Virus record (IMG/VR): IMGVR_UViG_2660238209_000006
Reading direction: 5' to 3' (one strand)
Length of the DNA stretch: 4,719 nt
DNA from: a virus
Lineage: Duplodnaviria; Heunggongvirae; Uroviricota; Caudoviricetes
The translations under genes were made by a program, and so were the position numbers. The stretch's first letter is position 1; every line of letters begins with the position of its first letter. Below the pieces are notes generated by a model. That model saw only the letters and a program-made list of their open reading frames with translations, was not told where the DNA came from and did not search any database. Positions 1-4,719 of the stretch are shown one piece after another.

Positions 1-128
<128 letters not shown>

Positions 129-274
129 CGGCGATTACCCCCCTCGCTGGTTTTTCTTTCTTAAACAGTTCCAAATCACCGCCACTCCTCCACCGTCCGG
201 TACGGTGGAACCGACGCCTGTGGTGCAAGTCTGCGAATACGTTCAAGAACCCCGGCTGCCGCAATGTTTTTCAT
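129..274 (-). pseudogene. Frame-disrupted 5' end of the gene downstream of the replication initiator (possible DnaC/P-like helicase loader), truncated by the poly(T)
   Basis: Minus-strand ATG at 272-274 lies 6 nt after the stop of the upstream replication gene (TGA at 281-283) with a G-rich RBS-like stretch before it. It translates as MKNIAAAGVLERIRRLAPQASVPPYRTVEEWR, then stops at 176-178. A different frame continues open as DLELFKKEKPARGVIA into the poly(T). The DnaC-like call is from memory of the DnaC N-terminus (MKN start, EELLAWQKEQ-like stretch) and is weak. Confidence 0.3.
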
Positions 275-280
275 GCCACA

Positions 281-1357
281 TCACCCCCTGAATCCCGGCG
301 GAATTTCGGTATCCGGTTCAGAAATATGATTCACACAACGCTGGTTGTTCGTGCCGCTTACCGGGAGCAACCAGGGGTTTTCAAAATTCCGGTCCGGCCC
401 AAAAAACGTCGTCGCTCGCTGAACAAATTCCGTTCCCGTTTTCCCGGTAGCCGCCAGGTATCTTGCGTAACGCCTCACACCATCCAGTATGGCCTCTGGT
501 GGCACCCCCTCGCGTAATCTGGCCTTCCAGGCACTGAAAGCGGATTTCTTCGGGTTTGCCCCAGCACGCAACGGGTACTCCCGCCAGACCTGTTCGAACA
601 CATCCGGATAATCCACTCGTCCCACAGACTGACCGGTGTTTTCCGGGACTACCCGATCGGCTTCCCGCTGAATGGCGGAATCGGCTTCAGGCTGCTGAAG
701 TTGGTGTGATTGCTCCTGCCTTGCGGTCATCACCTGCTGCACAGCGCCCGAATCGGCTTTCAGCGCATACGCTGAATCGGCTTCCGGTGTCGTGCCTGCT
801 GGCTGACCAGGATTGACGGTCTGAACATCCCCTGCCTGGTTCGTGGCGTTTTTTACGCCATGGACCATAGTGTTTTGATCTTCTTGATCTGTATCTTTAT
901 CTGTATCTTTATCTGTCGTGACTCGTCGTGACATGTGCGTGACATTTCGTGACTCGCCGTGACAATCGCCATTTTGTTCCCGCTTTCTTTCCCTCTCTCG
1001 CTGCGCCCTCTTGCGCTCTGCCGGAGATTTTGCGGTTTGCGAAATATTGCCGTTGTCCTCTTTCAGCACCTGGCGTTTTTCCCATCCAGTGATTAAATCA
1101 CCATCAAGTACCCGCCCCTGCATCGTCTGCAAAATTGAATCAATTACCTCTTCTGTCACGTCGAGCGCACTTGCCAAATCTTCTGTCGTGACATCAATGT
1201 GACCTCGCGTGACATTTCGTGACGCGCTCACCAGGAGGTGGATATACACTGCCATCACTGTTGCAATTGGCTGCCCTGACACCCTGGCAATTGTTCGCCA
1301 CTTAGGGTCATTTGGCATGTCATGCCATAATCTGAGCCAGGCGTTAGCCATACTCAC
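281..1357 (-). CDS. Phage replication initiation protein (YdaU / O-like replisome organiser), 358 aa
   Basis: Supplied ORF with RBS GAGG 5 nt upstream of the ATG at 1355-1357. It sits directly after the CII-like gene in the rightward early operon. Phased iteron-like repeats lie inside the coding sequence, as in lambda O. The next gene is coupled 6 nt downstream. The N-terminal PKWRTIARVSGQP...YIHLLVSAS motif resembles Rac YdaU-type proteins from memory. Confidence 0.8.
   Translation of the reverse strand: MSMANAWLRLWHDMPNDPKWRTIARVSGQPIATVMAVYIHLLVSASRNVTRGHIDVTTEDLASALDVTEEVIDSILQTMQGRVLDGDLITGWEKRQVLKEDNGNISQTAKSPAERKRAQRERERKREQNGDCHGESRNVTHMSRRVTTDKDTDKDTDQEDQNTMVHGVKNATNQAGDVQTVNPGQPAGTTPEADSAYALKADSGAVQQVMTARQEQSHQLQQPEADSAIQREADRVVPENTGQSVGRVDYPDVFEQVWREYPLRAGANPKKSAFSAWKARLREGVPPEAILDGVRRYARYLAATGKTGTEFVQRATTFFGPDRNFENPWLLPVSGTNNQRCVNHISEPDTEIPPGFRG
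889..963. repeat. Putative replication origin core: tandem 12-mer (CTGTATCTTTAT x2, 889-912) followed by five helically phased CGTGAC iterons
   Basis: Directly seen: CGTGAC begins at 917, 927, 938, 948 and 958, spaced 10-11 bp, immediately after an AT-rich tandem repeat. The array lies inside the initiator gene in the segment encoding ...SRNVTHMSRRVTTDKDTDKDTD. Confidence 0.5.
1155..1223. repeat. Second iteron-like cluster inside the initiator gene, including an exact 17-bp direct repeat of the ori core
   Basis: GCGTGACATTTCGTGAC occurs exactly at 937-953 and at 1207-1223, 270 bp apart and in frame; both copies encode SRNVT. CGTGAC or its partial form also begins at 1187, about 1198, 1208 and 1218, with an inverted copy GTCACG at 1155-1160. 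Confidence 0.4.
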
Positions 1358-1422
1358 CTCTTCTGATACCGAATCTTTTTACTCACGAGTTGCCGGAAGC
1401 GATTCGATACGGCTATTGTCAG

Positions 1423-1848
1423 TCAATGTACTGCCACAGCATTTCCTGCCGGGCCACCACGGTTCATCTGATTGAAACCGGCGATTGCCACTGCGACAAA
1501 ATCATCAGCGTCTCTCACCAGTCGCTCCCGCGTCTCCACCAGCTCCCGAAAATAAGCTGAACTGTGGCTGCGCATTCTGGCCACCAGCAAAGGTGGCATT
1601 GCCTTTTCGATCGCTGGTAACAACGCCTGAATTTTTTCAACTGCATCAGGGGTGTCTTTCTCTACCCAGCGGAAAATTTTCTGGGTATTGCGAGCCAGGG
1701 CTTCCGGATGGCTGTCGTCATACAGTTCAGGAAACGTCATACCCAACTCAAAATAAGCCTGGGTTATTCCAGCTGCTGGAACTTTTTCGCCATCAGGACG
1801 CGCCCAGGCATTCATCGCCATGCGGATGTGTTCATGCTTGATTTTCAT
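1423..1848 (-). CDS. YdaT-like / CII-like early regulatory protein, 141 aa
   Basis: Supplied ORF with RBS AGGAG 8 nt upstream of the ATG. Its start overlaps the 3' end of the Cro-like gene by 17 nt, indicating an operon. Position between cro-like and replication genes matches lambdoid cII / Rac ydaT. The MKIKHEHI start resembles the YdaT family from memory. Confidence 0.65.
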   Translation of the reverse strand: MKIKHEHIRMAMNAWARPDGEKVPAAGITQAYFELGMTFPELYDDSHPEALARNTQKIFRWVEKDTPDAVEKIQALLPAIEKAMPPLLVARMRSHSSAYFRELVETRERLVRDADDFVAVAIAGFNQMNRGGPAGNAVAVH

Positions 1849-2113
1849 GAATCAAGCTCCTAGTAAGTGGTTGTGTTAACGTTTTGGTATCTTCCAGCTC
1901 GGGCCAAATATTCATCCAATCAAAAGGCCTTAGTTGCTGACGTGTAACTTCACCATTACTGGCTCGCTCAATAAGGACACATAACGATGCCCCTAACATT
2001 TGACCTTTACTCAATGCCTTTCTTAGATAACCGATGCTAGTACCACACTCACATGCAAACATACGCTGTTCATCTGACGAAAGAGAATTGAGAAATATTC
2101 TTAATTCTTCCAT
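1832..2113 (-). CDS. Cro / YdaS-like helix-turn-helix regulator, 93 aa
   Basis: Supplied ORF with RBS AGGAG 5 nt upstream of the ATG at 2111-2113. It is divergent from the repressor gene across an operator-bearing intergenic region. The segment CGTSIGYLRKAL is HTH-like. Confidence 0.75.
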   Translation of the reverse strand: MEELRIFLNSLSSDEQRMFACECGTSIGYLRKALSKGQMLGASLCVLIERASNGEVTRQQLRPFDWMNIWPELEDTKTLTQPLTRSLIHENQA

Positions 2114-2137
2114 AGCTACTCCTTAGTAAACACAGCA

Positions 2138-2165
2138 AGAATACCCACAGGTAAACAAAAGTCAA
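2138..2165 (-). promoter_or_regulatory. Candidate pR-type promoter for the cro-like operon
   Basis: On the minus strand: -35 TTGACT (plus 2160-2165), 16-nt spacer, -10 TATTCT (plus 2138-2143), giving a 5' UTR of roughly 20 nt before the ATG at 2113. The -10 overlaps OR1 and the -35 abuts OR2. Confidence 0.5.
2142..2153. promoter_or_regulatory. Operator OR1 candidate (TACCCACAGGTA)
   Basis: A 12-bp site with TACCC and GGTA half-sites, a near-match to the perfect palindrome TACCCATGGGTA found twice downstream of the repressor gene. It overlaps the candidate pR -10. Confidence 0.55.
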
Positions 2166-2177
2166 TACCCTTGGGTT
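2166..2177. promoter_or_regulatory. Operator OR2 candidate (TACCCTTGGGTT)
   Basis: Matches the TACCC-N2-GGGT pattern, 24 bp centre-to-centre from OR1. A 9-bp inverted repeat GGTAAACAA (2150-2158) / TTGTTTACC (2176-2184) also spans this region. Confidence 0.55.
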
Positions 2178-2220
2178 GTTTACCTTGCGGTAATCGCATC
2201 TATTATTTACCTATGGACAA
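2176..2220 (+). promoter_or_regulatory. Candidate pRM-type promoter giving a leaderless repressor mRNA, with a weak OR3-like site
   Basis: -10 TATTAT at 2201-2206 ends 6 nt before the repressor ATG at 2213, with only a weak -35 (TTTACC / TTGTTT around 2176-2184) and no Shine-Dalgarno. This is analogous to leaderless lambda cI from pRM. TACCTATGGACA (2208-2219) is a 3-mismatch operator-like site overlapping the start codon. Confidence 0.4.
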
Positions 2221-2632
2221 ATATGAATTTAGACGACAACAACTCATCAAAATTCGTGATGAGAAATGCGATGGTAAAGCGGTTAACGTGGCCAGAAAGA
2301 TCGGTCGCGAGCCTTCTTATGTATCAAGAATGTTGTACCCAGAGGGGAAAAAAGGAAAAAAACGGATCGCTGATGATATGGTGGAGATTATAGAAGAGTC
2401 CTTTGGGTTACCCCGGGGATGGATGGATGGTATCGTTTCATCATCAACGAACACAGCCTCCAATTATGAAACAAGGGTTCTAACGCCACGACAACGTATT
2501 TTTTTAGATCTCTTAGACGAACTGCCAGAAAGTGAAGCGGATAACTTATTAAAAACTCTTGAAGAGAAAAAACAGTATTACAATATGATCTACGAAGAAA
2601 TCCGTAAAAAGAAAGCACAAAACGCATCATAA
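2213..2632 (+). CDS. Prophage repressor (RacR / CI-like functional analogue), HTH N-terminus, 139 aa
   Basis: Open frame from 2171, but the first ATG is at 2213 directly behind a -10 element. The translation MDKYEFRRQQ...GKAVNVARKIGREPSYVSRML has an HTH-like segment. No obvious S24 peptidase Ser/Lys motifs were seen in the C-terminal half. It is divergent from the cro-like gene and flanked on both sides by the same palindromic operator motif. Confidence 0.75.
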   Translation: MDKYEFRRQQLIKIRDEKCDGKAVNVARKIGREPSYVSRMLYPEGKKGKKRIADDMVEIIEESFGLPRGWMDGIVSSSTNTASNYETRVLTPRQRIFLDLLDELPESEADNLLKTLEEKKQYYNMIYEEIRKKKAQNAS

Positions 2633-2674
2633 CTCACCAAACAACCAGTCACCAGTTAAGACACATCAAAAAAT

Positions 2675-2686
2675 TACCCATGGGTA
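2675..2686. promoter_or_regulatory. Operator OL1: perfect 12-bp palindrome TACCCATGGGTA
   Basis: Directly seen; the site is its own reverse complement. It lies 43 bp after the repressor stop. Confidence 0.7.
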
Positions 2687-2699
2687 TTTACTTTTTAAA

Positions 2700-2711
2700 T
2701 ACCCATGGGTA
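2700..2711. promoter_or_regulatory. Operator OL2: second perfect copy of TACCCATGGGTA
   Basis: Identical 12-mer, 25 bp centre-to-centre from OL1. The intervening AT-rich TTTACTTTTTAAA and the following TATCCT (2710-2715) could supply -35/-10 elements for a rightward pL-type promoter. Confidence 0.7.
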
Positions 2712-2897
2712 TCCTTCCTTTCATACCAACCCACCCCGTCCCACAGAACGCAGGGCAATACTTCGAGTTACCAGGCAGTGGTCAGGGGGTAAGTAGCCAG
2801 CCCGAGGCGTAAGAACATGACGGCAGGGTTCAACTTTAATAACTATGCAGCAGGTTTTTGTTCCGCTACCCCGGCGTTAAGGGGAAATGAGGTCAGC

Positions 2898-3050
2898 ATG
2901 GATACTATCGATCTTGGCAACAGCGAATCTCTGGTATGCGGCGTGTTTCCCAACCAGGACGGTACGTTTACCGCGATGACGTATACCAAAAGTAAAACGT
3001 TTAAAACCGAAGCTGGCGCGCATCGCTGGTTAGCAAGAAACTCCGACTGA
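2898..3050 (+). CDS. Small YdaF-like (DUF1391-like) protein, 50 aa; possible longer form starting at 2817
   Basis: ATG at 2898 is preceded by GAGG with a 5-nt spacer and translates as MDTIDLGNSESLVCGVFPNQDGTFTAMTYTKSKTFKTEAGAHRWLARNSD. The stop TGA (3048-3050) overlaps the next gene's ATG (3050-3052). Resemblance to Rac YdaF is from memory. The in-frame ATG at 2817 has a weaker RBS. Confidence 0.55.
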   Translation: MDTIDLGNSESLVCGVFPNQDGTFTAMTYTKSKTFKTEAGAHRWLARNSD

Positions 3051-3061
3051 TGAGGTTGACG

Positions 3062-3700
3062 ATGGAATTTAAAGATTTACCTCCTTCAATCCAGGAGATT
3101 GCAGCACACACACTTCGTCATCGTCTGAACGAACTTGAATTGGAATCGGTAACGAAAAAAGACACTGATAATATGGCTCGTAATGTGCGCGATGCGTTTA
3201 CCGGATTGTATTTCTGTGCGTCTATAAATAAACACGACTCAGAGAGTGTGGCAAATAAAATTGCAGAAACGACAGCGCAAAACATCAATACGAAACCAAC
3301 GGAAGAAGAAATTGATCAGTTTGCTCATGATGCTGGTTTAAAAAACAAGAAAGAAAAATCGCCATATGCGGGGAACATGTTTGTTTATGACAATCTCATC
3401 AGAATTCGTGGCGAAATTCCGGCGGAATACCTGGCAAGAGTCCATCAGGCATTGCTTAAAAATTTGGAAACAGAATTATTTGATGGCAACACTAACGGTT
3501 TCTTCATGGTATCAGGCCTTGATAAAGACTGGGATGCAGAAAAACGCTGGAATGTTGCTACATGGTTATTCAGTAACAGAGCCGCTGCACTGGAAGCTTC
3601 GGCATGTATTTGCGGCCTGTTCTTAACAGACCACAAATATAATCTGGATGTGTACAGTTATATTTACGCTGAACACGGTCCACTCTGGATTGACTGGTAA
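3062..3700 (+). CDS. Uncharacterised protein, about 212 aa (216 aa if started at 3050); no family recognised
   Basis: Long supplied ORF. ATG at 3062 has GAGG 6 nt upstream; the alternative ATG at 3050 overlaps the upstream stop (TGATG). No transmembrane stretch, P-loop or nuclease motif was recognised by eye. It is the second gene downstream of the OL-type operators. Confidence 0.7.
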   Translation: MEFKDLPPSIQEIAAHTLRHRLNELELESVTKKDTDNMARNVRDAFTGLYFCASINKHDSESVANKIAETTAQNINTKPTEEEIDQFAHDAGLKNKKEKSPYAGNMFVYDNLIRIRGEIPAEYLARVHQALLKNLETELFDGNTNGFFMVSGLDKDWDAEKRWNVATWLFSNRAAALEASACICGLFLTDHKYNLDVYSYIYAEHGPLWIDW

Positions 3701-3910
3701 TTATAAGGAAACACCAGCAGGGCCGCGGCGACCAACAGAACGATTAAAATCAATAATGCCATTATAAAGGACATTATTTAATTTATCGTCGAATGCTGAT
3801 TCTGTGAGCCTCAACTCTGAATGAGTTTTTAATAACCCTGATTGCCTGAGTTGATTTACCAGGCATTCAATCTGTTTTTCAATAAGCGGATTTCTTTTTT
3901 TGTTTGGCAT
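3701..3910 (-). CDS. Small basic hypothetical protein, 69 aa (73 aa from the upstream ATG at 3920-3922)
   Basis: Minus-strand ORF with a strong RBS GGAGGA 5 nt before the ATG at 3908-3910. Translation starts MPNKKRNPLIEKQIECLVNQLRQSG.... It sits in a visibly AT-rich island, and its stop codon (3701-3703) directly abuts the stop of the convergent 212-aa gene (3698-3700), forming TAATTA. Confidence 0.5.
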   Translation of the reverse strand: MPNKKRNPLIEKQIECLVNQLRQSGLLKTHSELRLTESAFDDKLNNVLYNGIIDFNRSVGRRGPAGVSL

Positions 3911-3922
3911 TTTATCCTCCAT

Positions 3923-4432
3923 TGAGGTTCTGGGTTAAAAATGGAGACCAACACGCTGTCACGTGTGGTCGTGCGCCGGACACGGATAAGAATCCGGTAC
4001 TGACAGTTTACTGAAAGGATATTTCCCTGAAAAGTCAGGGCATAACGCGAAAGCGTACGGCGAAGCTCTTTCCCTTAGAAGGCTTGTCGTTAGATTTCTT
4101 CGAACGTGCGCTTCCGGTTGTGGCACTCCGCGAAATGGCGCGGCGGTAAGTATGGCGGGGTTATTCCTTCCCCGTTGAGGACACCGGGTTGTCAGGTTGA
4201 CCATACGCTTAAGTGACAACCCCGCTGCAACGCCCTCTGTTATCAATTTTCTGGTGACGTTTGGCGGTATCAGTTTTACTCCGTGGCTGCTCTGCCGCCC
4301 TTTTTAAAGTGAATTTTGTGATGCGGTGAATGCGGCTAAGCGCACGCGGAACAGTTAAAACAAGCGGTCTTTTACGGGCGTAACGGGAATGCTCTGTATC
4401 CGGCGTTAATTGTTAACTGGTTAACGTCACCT
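3923..4432. other. GC-rich, hairpin-dense region with no convincing CDS; candidate structured RNA or decayed gene remnant
   Basis: No ORF with a plausible start or RBS; the 95-aa minus ORF is Arg/Pro-rich junk-like. Local hairpins: CCCTGA-AAAG-TCAGGG (4025-4040), ACGC-GAAA-GCGT (4045-4056), CCGCG-AAATGG-CGCGG (4128-4143), CGGGG-loop-CCCCG (4156-4174), and a 9-bp stem GGGTTGTCA / TGACAACCC (4186-4194 / 4214-4222). Confidence 0.25.
4186..4222. repeat. Perfect 9-bp inverted repeat with a 19-nt loop (GGGTTGTCA ... TGACAACCC)
   Basis: Directly seen. A perfect 9-bp inverted repeat at this spacing is unlikely by chance in about 500 bp. Function is unknown (RNA hairpin or protein-binding site). Confidence 0.5.
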
Positions 4433-4719
4433 TGAACCGCCCCGGGTTTCCTGGAGAGTGTTTTATCTGTGAACTCAGGCTGCCAGATCATCGTTTCCGA
4501 TGGAAGCATAATAAGCTTTTTCTGCTTCTGCCGGAGGAGTATGGCCCAGCCTTCCCAGCAATCGTCGATTGTTATACCAGTCCACCCACGTTAGTGTGGC
4601 CAGTTCCACTTCTGCACGGTTTTTCCAGCTCTTACGGTGTATTACCTCCGCTTTGTAAAGACCATTGATGCTCTCAGCCATCGCGTTGTCATACGAGTCG
4701 CCTGTACTCCCTGTTGATG
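4433..4719 (-). mobile_element. IS3-family insertion sequence (IS629 / IS1203-like), right terminus and 3' part, continuing beyond the window
   Basis: Terminal sequence TGAACCGCCCCGGGTTTCCTGGAGAG starting at 4433 matches IS629-type terminal inverted repeats from memory (TG terminus). An IS3-family OrfB C-terminus is encoded immediately inside it. Confidence 0.8.
4475..4719 (-). CDS. IS3-family transposase OrfB, C-terminal fragment (N-terminus lies outside the window)
   Basis: The minus-strand frame is open to the window edge: ...STGDSYDNAMAESINGLYKAEVIHRKSWKNRAEVELATLTWVDWYNNRRLLGRLGHTPPAEAEKAYYASIGNDDLAA, stop at 4475-4477. The DNAxAES...LK.E and WYNNRR(L)H motifs are typical of the IS3-family integrase C-terminus. 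The supplied 68-aa ORF is only the part after an internal Met. Confidence 0.85.
   Translation of the reverse strand, partial: STGSTGDSYDNAMAESINGLYKAEVIHRKSWKNRAEVELATLTWVDWYNNRRLLGRLGHTPPAEAEKAYYASIGNDDLAA

Follow-up and report, generated by a model that had tools for sequence, protein, structure and literature searches.

Repeated palindromes flank the gene of a 139-amino-acid repressor in the window analyzed here, a 4,719-nucleotide stretch of the Caudoviricetes virus record IMGVR_UViG_2660238209_000006 (IMG/VR), and they raise the question of whether this DNA holds a lambdoid immunity switch and how far any likeness to lambda extends. Positions 127–4432 of the window are 99.4% identical to a prophage in Escherichia coli O111:H- 11128, with 100% identity over the central 1.3 kb. 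The repressor gene (2213–2632, + strand) and a gene for a Cro-like protein (1832–2113, − strand) are divergent, with a gap of 99 bp between them. A first-pass annotation, made from the sequence alone, had proposed the classic lambdoid bistable layout for this locus. Gene order and a comparison of 47 loci support five palindromes as operators with which the promoter candidates pR, pRM, and pL are interlocked, and we consider it highly probable that in this E. coli prophage they serve a lambdoid immunity switch as its operators. The proposed layout is largely supported. The repressor has no S24 autocleavage domain, and the switch is probably lambda-like in its wiring and not in its induction.

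Palindromes and promoter candidates around the repressor gene

Three sites lie in the right operator region (OR), between the divergent genes. OR1, TACCCACAGGTA (2142–2153), and OR3, TACCTTGCGGTA (2181–2192), contain the exact core, and OR2, TACCCTTGGGTT (2166–2177), has one core mismatch, its left half being conserved and its right half degenerate. The left operator region (OL), downstream of the repressor gene, consists of two perfect copies of TACCCATGGGTA, the promoter-distal OL2 (2675–2686) and the promoter-proximal OL1 (2700–2711), which form the two arms of a perfect inverted repeat of 16 nt (2675–2711). All four operator sequences quoted in the first-pass annotation were present, with the OL copies 25 bp apart and OR1 and OR2 24 bp apart from start to start. 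Relative to the repressor start at 2213, the centers of OR2 and OR1 fall at −41.5 and −65.5. If transcription starts at 2213, these are the positions that OR2 and OR1 occupy relative to pRM on the lambda map.

The placement of the sites is not random. The exact core TACCNNNNGGTA (TACC-N4-GGTA) occurs four times in the window (2142, 2181, 2675, and 2700) versus 0.02 expected, and all four matches fall outside genes, in the pair of intergenic regions that border the repressor gene. When TACCCNNGGGTA was searched with up to two mismatches, eight matches were obtained versus 1.16 expected; the five operator sites are all in these two intergenic regions, and the other three matches are inside genes (1663, 2409, and 2867). 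Beyond the five, no TTACCyryrGGTAA site was found within the 25 kb scanned. The palindrome had been given earlier as TACCC-N2-GGGTA; it is real, with the correction that its fifth base is C or T and the partner G or A, hence TTACCyryrGGTAA. No operator description was found in a literature search with the motif in several spellings and with phage mEp043, and the specificity TTACC-N4-GGTAA seems to be previously undescribed.

The third OR site had to be moved. It had been placed over the repressor start codon (TACCTATGGACA, 2208–2219), and the full-core site at 2181–2192 had been overlooked. The start-codon site was rejected as OR3: it matches only 6 of the 8 core positions and is absent from other genera, and it is kept in near-identical E. 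coli variants, where the whole stretch is invariant. The site at 2181–2192 replaces it, with counterparts at −32/−33 from the ATG in 37 of the 47 loci.

Promoter-like hexamers are interlocked with these sites. On the − strand, a promoter scan called a pR candidate (2138–2165; 9 of 12 matches) with a −35 element TTGACT (2165–2160), a 16-nt spacer, and a −10 element TATTCT (2143–2138), which would drive the cro-like gene and the YdaT-like gene beyond it. OR1 fills its spacer, the outer TA of OR1 starts its −10, and OR2 abuts its −35. The same scan called a pRM-like promoter on the + strand (2179–2206), with TTTACC (2179–2184) and TATTAT (2201–2206) again separated by 16 nt; OR2 ends 1 nt before its −35, and OR3 overlaps the −35 and spacer, so that the left half of OR3 serves as the −35. 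Both calls agree with the promoter candidates of the first-pass annotation. A pL candidate (2687–2715, + strand; −35 TTTACT at 2687–2692, 17-nt spacer, −10 TATCCT at 2710–2715) is directed away from the repressor gene, into a dicBF-type operon. OL2 lies immediately upstream of its −35, and OL1 fills its spacer and provides, with its last TA, the start of its −10. pR and pL share one cassette, in which a distal operator is directly followed by a TTGAnn −35; 7 nt further on lies a proximal operator, the last TA of which forms the start of a TAnnnT −10.

The pRM-like −10 ends 6 nt before the repressor ATG at 2213. No Shine-Dalgarno (SD)-like sequence precedes this ATG in the window, and only 8 of the 47 loci have one. 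Because the pRM-like −10 lies 6–7 nt before the ATG and SD-like sequences are rare, the repressor mRNA appears to be leaderless, as the first-pass annotation had also suggested.

Conservation of the sites and domain make-up of the repressor

The comparison set was non-redundant and comprised 44 genomic loci encoding the N-terminal domain of the repressor, a Salmonella locus, phage mEp043, and the window; the genomic sources were Enterobacterales, Aeromonas, Neisseria, Burkholderiales, and Xanthomonadales (gamma- and betaproteobacteria). The first site, O1, was found at −71 to −75 from the repressor ATG in 43 of the 47 loci, O2 at −47/−48 in 36, and O3 at −32/−33 in 37, with all three together in 33. 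The right half of O2 was always weak (GGtt, GGga, or GGtc) and followed by aTT and O3. Spacing was nearly fixed: O1 and O2 were 25 bp apart in 29 loci and 24 bp apart in 5, the window among them, and O2 and O3 were 15 bp apart in 33 of 33 cases. A downstream OL pair with a spacing of 25–26 bp was present in 33 loci, from 42 to ∼2800 bp past the repressor stop codon, and genes such as a ParE toxin module are often inserted in between. Over the 47 loci there were 136 exact cores in 318 kb versus 4.9 expected, and the consensus across loci was TTACCyryrGGTAA.

The promoter cassettes were conserved along with the sites. The pR cassette (TTGAnn directly after O2, TAnnnT beginning at the O1 edge) was kept in 35 loci, and the pL cassette, in identical orientation and always directed away from the repressor gene, in 33; in phage mEp043 the equivalent of pL is annotated as putative PL. 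Among the 37 loci with O3, 20 had TAnnnT at a 16-nt spacer, ending 6–7 nt before the ATG, and all 20 were from Enterobacterales or Aeromonas; this distance, together with the rarity of SD-like sequences, supports the leaderless gene behind a pRM-like −10. In E. coli variants with 88–97% identity, substitutions in the sites were found only in the central N4 and spared TACC and GGTA. This applied to OR1 and to the OL1 position, which reads TACCTATGGGTA or TACCTGTGGGTA with only the central bases differing, and the pL hexamers were invariant.

The reverse test gave a corresponding result. Viral contigs were scanned with the DNA cassette alone (TACC-N4-GGTA, TTGA, N9-10, TACC-N4-GGTA), which yielded at least 120 contigs. 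Among the 120 listed, 79 encode a homologue of the N-terminal domain and 86 a Cro homologue (E ≤ 1e-5). An attempt to tell the repressor from Cro by co-occurrence failed: several or most of the listed contigs without a clear repressor-domain match encode more distant versions of that domain.

Several loci depart from the common arrangement. In two Advenella loci (L046 and L050), which encode the most distant homologues (38–42% identity), the usual sites are absent, and ∼40–60 bp upstream of the repressor ATG a single palindrome with the same half-sites much further apart is found instead (ATACCGCCTCTTGATGCGGTAT and TACCGTCCATTGTTACGGTG); these wide palindromes may reflect a changed dimer geometry. 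Six Klebsiella loci (L009 and L012–L016) encode S24-type repressors of the family with O1, mostly O3, and an OL site or pair. They have no Cro-like gene on the other side, the upstream DNA does not look like phage DNA, and the repressors may be orphans or remnants. In Salmonella loci L002–L004, a ParE-toxin gene and a partner gene (3733–4298) lie between the repressor gene and OL, the slot that holds rexAB in lambda and paaA2-parE2 in CP-933P (PMC8630535).

The repressor itself consists of a helix-turn-helix (HTH) N-terminal domain (residues 1 to ∼75), a disordered linker (76–87), and a DicA-like helical C-terminal domain (∼88–139). It matched phrog_5736, a transcriptional regulator, in PHROG (E 4.7e-70), and no Pfam family even at E 10. 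The N-terminal domain is 64–85% identical to that of S24-type CI repressors of 221–242 amino acids from Salmonella, Pantoea, Klebsiella, Yersinia, and Edwardsiella, and 65% identical to that of phage mEp043 cI. Residues 84–136 matched the C-terminal part of DicA (NCBIfam NF007257, E 2.5e-5), and in BLASTP against K-12 DicA the C-terminal domain alone aligned (33% identity over 46 residues, E 1e-7); the score against the NF007257 model, 24.1 bits, is below the cut-off of 101, so that similarity does not extend over the full length. Peptidase_S24 gave no match in the repressor even at E 10, whereas relatives with the same N-terminal domain score 64–80 bits. By its sequence, the repressor is a chimera that joins a widespread DNA-binding domain without a curated family model, similar to that of S24-type CI proteins, to a DicA-type tail.

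The N-terminal domain family comprises 632 cluster representatives (E ≤ 1e-3) with lengths from ∼70 to 400 amino acids; the domain therefore has many C-terminal partners. Across the family, the recognition-helix region REPSYVSRMLY is near-invariant. An AlphaFold2 model of the repressor (mean predicted local distance difference test score 82) has four N-terminal helices, the disordered linker, and two C-terminal helices. Its best structural matches were Rep, the non-cleavable repressor from Salmonella phage SPC32H, and HTH proteins of the XRE type, and a search of the PDB by sequence returned nothing significant (best E 0.075, Z-DNA-binding domains).

We also observed that the repressor gene contains runs, GGGGAAAAAAGGAAAAAAAC, at 2345–2362. 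Many database entries (P0007–P0019 and P0023) begin at 2223 in the +1 frame and return to that of the repressor at these runs; either the repressor gene would be frameshifted in these other E. coli strains, or the sequencing would have erred at homopolymers.

Proposed switch, rival explanations, and known relatives

We propose that repressor dimers recognize TTACCyryrGGTAA through the N-terminal HTH domain. Occupancy of OR1 and the weak OR2 would block pR, OR1 filling the pR spacer and touching its −10. A dimer at OR2, centered at −41.5 from the ATG, would be placed as lambda CI is at OR2 when it activates pRM, and at high repressor levels occupancy of OR3 would shut pRM off. The pRM transcript would start at or next to the AUG. 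Downstream, the −35 of pL would lie between OL2 and OL1, with the spacer of pL filled; pL, built like pR, would read into the dicBF-type operon. The role of Cro at these sites most likely falls to the divergent YdaS-type protein; by analogy with studied switches, both proteins probably bind them. Because the C-terminal domain of the repressor is DicA-like and is not an S24 protease, RecA-driven self-cleavage is not expected, and induction would be expected to proceed through an antirepressor or through repressor instability.

Several points weigh against this proposal. OR2 has no proper right half-site, and OR2 and OR3 are only 15 bp apart from center to center, so that two dimers may not fit side by side. 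Cooperativity at 24–25 bp would be an analogy only, the C-terminal domain being different from that of lambda CI. The pL hexamers are weak, matching 8 of 12 consensus positions, which is below the threshold of the promoter scan, and pL was not called. The AlphaFold2 model has a predicted template modeling score of only 0.49. Because the sites are inherited in company with both the repressor domain and the Cro-like protein, co-occurrence cannot tell which protein reads them. In the literature, we found no reports of binding, footprints, or transcription starts for the repressor or its homologues.

The last but one of these points leads to the possibility that only the YdaS-type Cro-like protein reads the sites, while the 139-amino-acid protein binds elsewhere or does not bind DNA. 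The Cro-like gene is as faithful to the cassette in viral contigs as the repressor domain is, and the latter matches no curated HTH family. However, the Klebsiella loci without an adjacent Cro-like gene keep their sites beside the repressor gene, and the near-invariance of REPSYVSRMLY parallels the invariant TACC and GGTA. The position of OR2 at −41.5 and that of OR3 over the pRM −35 are sensible only for an autoregulating repressor, and in both lambda and CP-933P the two proteins bind the same region (PMC8630535). We judge it very improbable that Cro alone reads the sites. That the palindromes are chance matches or functionless leftovers of duplication has a negligible probability in our estimation: the motif is short, and the three relaxed matches inside genes look like noise, but none of 200 shuffles reached the observed count, and position, spacing, and orientation are kept across bacterial classes while flanking sequence is not, which already contradicts a chance origin.

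For the OL pair, a further alternative is that it mainly forms an intrinsic terminator, of the repressor transcript on the + strand or of leftward antisense transcription on the − strand, rather than an operator-promoter. The inverted repeat formed by the OL copies has a 16-bp stem and a 5-nt loop, and its RNA hairpin was predicted at −24.5 kcal/mol on the + strand (z −6.3) and −26.5 kcal/mol on the − strand. On the − strand the hairpin is followed by AUUUUUUG, a U-run, and a pattern scan called the repeat terminator-like on both strands. In lambda, a terminator of the cI-rex transcript also lies near OL. Any palindrome present in two copies, however, will form such a pairing automatically. 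In the E. coli variants and in 33 other loci, the central bases of the two sites differ and leave an imperfect stem, and the OL hairpin of one relative was no better than shuffled sequence (z −1.3). The + strand has no U-run after the hairpin (the tail is UCCUUCCUUU), the OL 12-mer recurs at OR, and a −35/−10 pair is conserved in fixed register and orientation between and after the OL sites. A mainly terminator function appears very improbable, and in this lineage the OL pair may have a secondary terminator role. A search of 2600–3000 against Rfam at a relaxed threshold returned only spurious microRNA-hairpin matches to the OL repeat.

The reading of the five palindromes as operators also places the locus among known switches. 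Like lambda, the window has divergent repressor and cro genes, three OR operators of which the first two are 24 bp apart, OR3 over pRM, an OR2 dimer that would sit ∼42 bp upstream of the start of an apparently leaderless repressor mRNA, and, past the end of the repressor gene, another group of operators with a pL that runs on the same strand. Unlike lambda, it has an unrelated operator sequence with a core of 12–14 bp rather than 17 bp, a spacing of 15 bp instead of 23 bp between OR2 and OR3, two sites in OL, a repressor without an S24 domain, and a Cro-like protein of the YdaS type. Phage 933W similarly has three OR sites and only two OL sites, but its repressor is reported to bind OR1 and OR2 non-cooperatively; the 933W repressor was absent among the tblastn matches in the phage collection.

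Qin of E. coli K-12 shares the gene order: a cro-like gene one way and, the other way, the repressor, a promoter, the DUF1391 gene, DicF, and dicB. The C-terminal domains are homologous, and both repressors are short and non-cleavable (PMC3441716, PMC10448788). The N-terminal DNA-binding domains, in contrast, are unrelated, that of DicA being an XRE-type HTH, and the DicA operator Oc is TTGTTAGTCATAACTAACAA, whereas the equivalent window positions carry TACC-N4-GGTA, as judged by eye without an Oc pattern search. CP-933P/Sp12 of E. coli O157:H7 shares the YdaS-type Cro and YdaT-type CII partners, a non-cleavable repressor, which appears to be leaderless in the window too, and the placement of a replication gene on one side and dicB on the other (PMC8630535). 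In CP-933P, the footprints of PaaR2 and YdaS fall in the same intergenic region, the paaR2 gene is leaderless, both proteins repress PL, and regulation by the repressor and YdaS extends to PR, PRM, and PL (PMC8630535). Its operators differ, being 18-bp repeats with the consensus GTTTAGTAA, and a toxin-antitoxin pair follows the repressor gene there, whereas the window has none.

The mEp043 cI protein and the S24-type CI proteins of Salmonella, Pantoea, Klebsiella, and Edwardsiella prophages have the same operator core, spacings, and promoter cassettes as the window. The OR sites of mEp043 (locus L052) start at 2429, 2454, and 2469, and its OL sites at 3596 and 3621. These repressors differ in having a Peptidase_S24 C-terminal domain and are presumably SOS-inducible, and their pL operons differ as well, that of mEp043 beginning with an N-like antiterminator gene, unlike that of the window. 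We found no operator analysis of mEp043-type S24 repressors in the literature.

The surrounding region and the meaning of the proposed switch

In its layout the window corresponds to the immunity and early-left region in lambdoid prophages of the Rac/Qin type. Downstream of pL, the first gene encodes a small DUF1391 (YdfA/YdaF-like) protein (2898–3050, + strand; Pfam DUF1391, E 6.5e-28), whose start is that of the RefSeq annotation of O111:H- 11128; its leader and start align with Qin ydfA. The second gene (3050–3700, + strand) encodes a 216-amino-acid protein that matches phrog_2151, of unknown function (E 2.7e-147), and had no match in Pfam or NCBIfam. A 73-amino-acid gene on the − strand comes next, followed by the DicF small RNA (4249–4300) on the same strand as pL (Rfam RF00039, 75 bits versus a gathering score of 48, E 7.5e-16). 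In intact relatives, including O111 11128, dicB follows DicF.

The DicF of Qin is a processing product of the dicBp transcript (PMC10448788); there DicA represses dicBp, and the antirepressor Rem relieves repression independently of RecA (PMC10448788, PMC3441716). The operator switch would, by this arrangement, also control a dicBF-type, cell-division-inhibitor operon. The earlier statement that cargo genes are placed under repressor control was right in substance, and the genes concerned are the prophage's own early-left dicBF-type operon; the principle is already known because repression of dicBp by DicA is documented for Qin (PMC10448788). Qin Rem showed no similarity to the product of its positional counterpart in O111 11128 (E 18). 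The LexA box pattern CTGT-N8-ACAG had no match in 25 kb around the locus, and there is therefore no sign of a LexA-controlled antirepressor there.

The end of an IS3-family insertion sequence, 100% identical to the IS1203 copies of O111 11128, occupies 4433–4719. Its start at 4433 corresponds to a point 49 bp before the dicB start point in O111 11128; in the source strain of the window, dicB is therefore cut off from DicF and pL, or lost. The leader between pL and the DUF1391 start (2716–2897, ∼180 nt) is conserved in the E. coli variants and mostly absent from Qin. It is also kept in phage Tritos, where the N-terminal domain of the repressor is a different one and TACC-N4-GGTA sites are lacking. 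An alternative 77-amino-acid frame starts within the leader at 2817.

On the other side of the switch, the 93-amino-acid Cro-like protein with a YdaS-type HTH matched phrog_35 (E 2.4e-23) and, at 25.9 bits, fell below the cut-off of 30 for Pfam YdaS_toxin; nearly all related loci have a homologue of it in divergent orientation to the repressor gene. The adjoining gene (1423–1848, − strand) encodes a YdaT-type, CII-like regulator of 141 amino acids that matched Pfam YdaT_toxin (PF06254, 39.6 bits versus a cut-off of 21) and phrog_163, a CII-like activator (E 3.4e-45). For CP-933P, activation of the PRE promoter by YdaT was seen in reporter assays, and a lambda-CII-like role was proposed for this protein (PMC8630535). 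The cro-like and YdaT-like frames overlap by 17 nt (1832–1848), which suggests translational coupling of the two genes. The lambda CII box pattern TTGC-N6-TTGC had a single match, at 1037, inside the replication gene.

This gene, for an O-like replication initiator (281–1357, − strand), lies beyond the YdaT-type gene. Two clusters of (T)CGTGAC repeats occur within it, five copies at 916–963 and three or four at 1186–1224, spaced by ∼10–11 bp and adjoined by the AT-rich repeat ATCTGTATCTTT at 880–915; the arrangement looks like a lambda-style origin with iterons within the initiator gene. Positions 1–126 of the window are an unbroken run of T. The run looks like a mask or artefact and not biology because the alignment to O111:H- 11128 begins only at base 127 and the counterpart there is a normal coding sequence, that of a DnaC-like ATP-binding protein.

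These findings leave the general picture of lambdoid switches unchanged and describe an ordinary switch with a seemingly undescribed operator specificity. We give even chances to a wider reading, in which one immunity module extends from Enterobacterales to Neisseria, Burkholderiales, and Xanthomonadales. Its parts would be the HTH domain without a curated model, a YdaS-type Cro, and a fixed cassette (TTACCyryrGGTAA at 24–25, 15, and 25–26 bp), joined to at least three unrelated kinds of C-terminal domain (an S24 autoprotease, a DicA-like helical domain, and other short tails), with the mode of induction swapped repeatedly and the wiring untouched. If this is true, the E. coli version would be of the antirepressor or instability type, and the family would be a natural domain-swap series in which the share of the C-terminal domain in cooperativity, looping, and induction threshold could be tested.

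For E. coli, this immunity type was found in 822 of 5426 complete genomes, O111 and O157:H7 strains included, where the repressor is annotated only as "hypothetical protein." The operator sequence allows prophages to be assigned to one immunity group and cross-immunity to be predicted between prophages that share a cell. With a repressor that has no self-cleavage domain, these prophages are probably not directly responsive to DNA damage, which bears on the timing of their gene expression in pathogenic strains.

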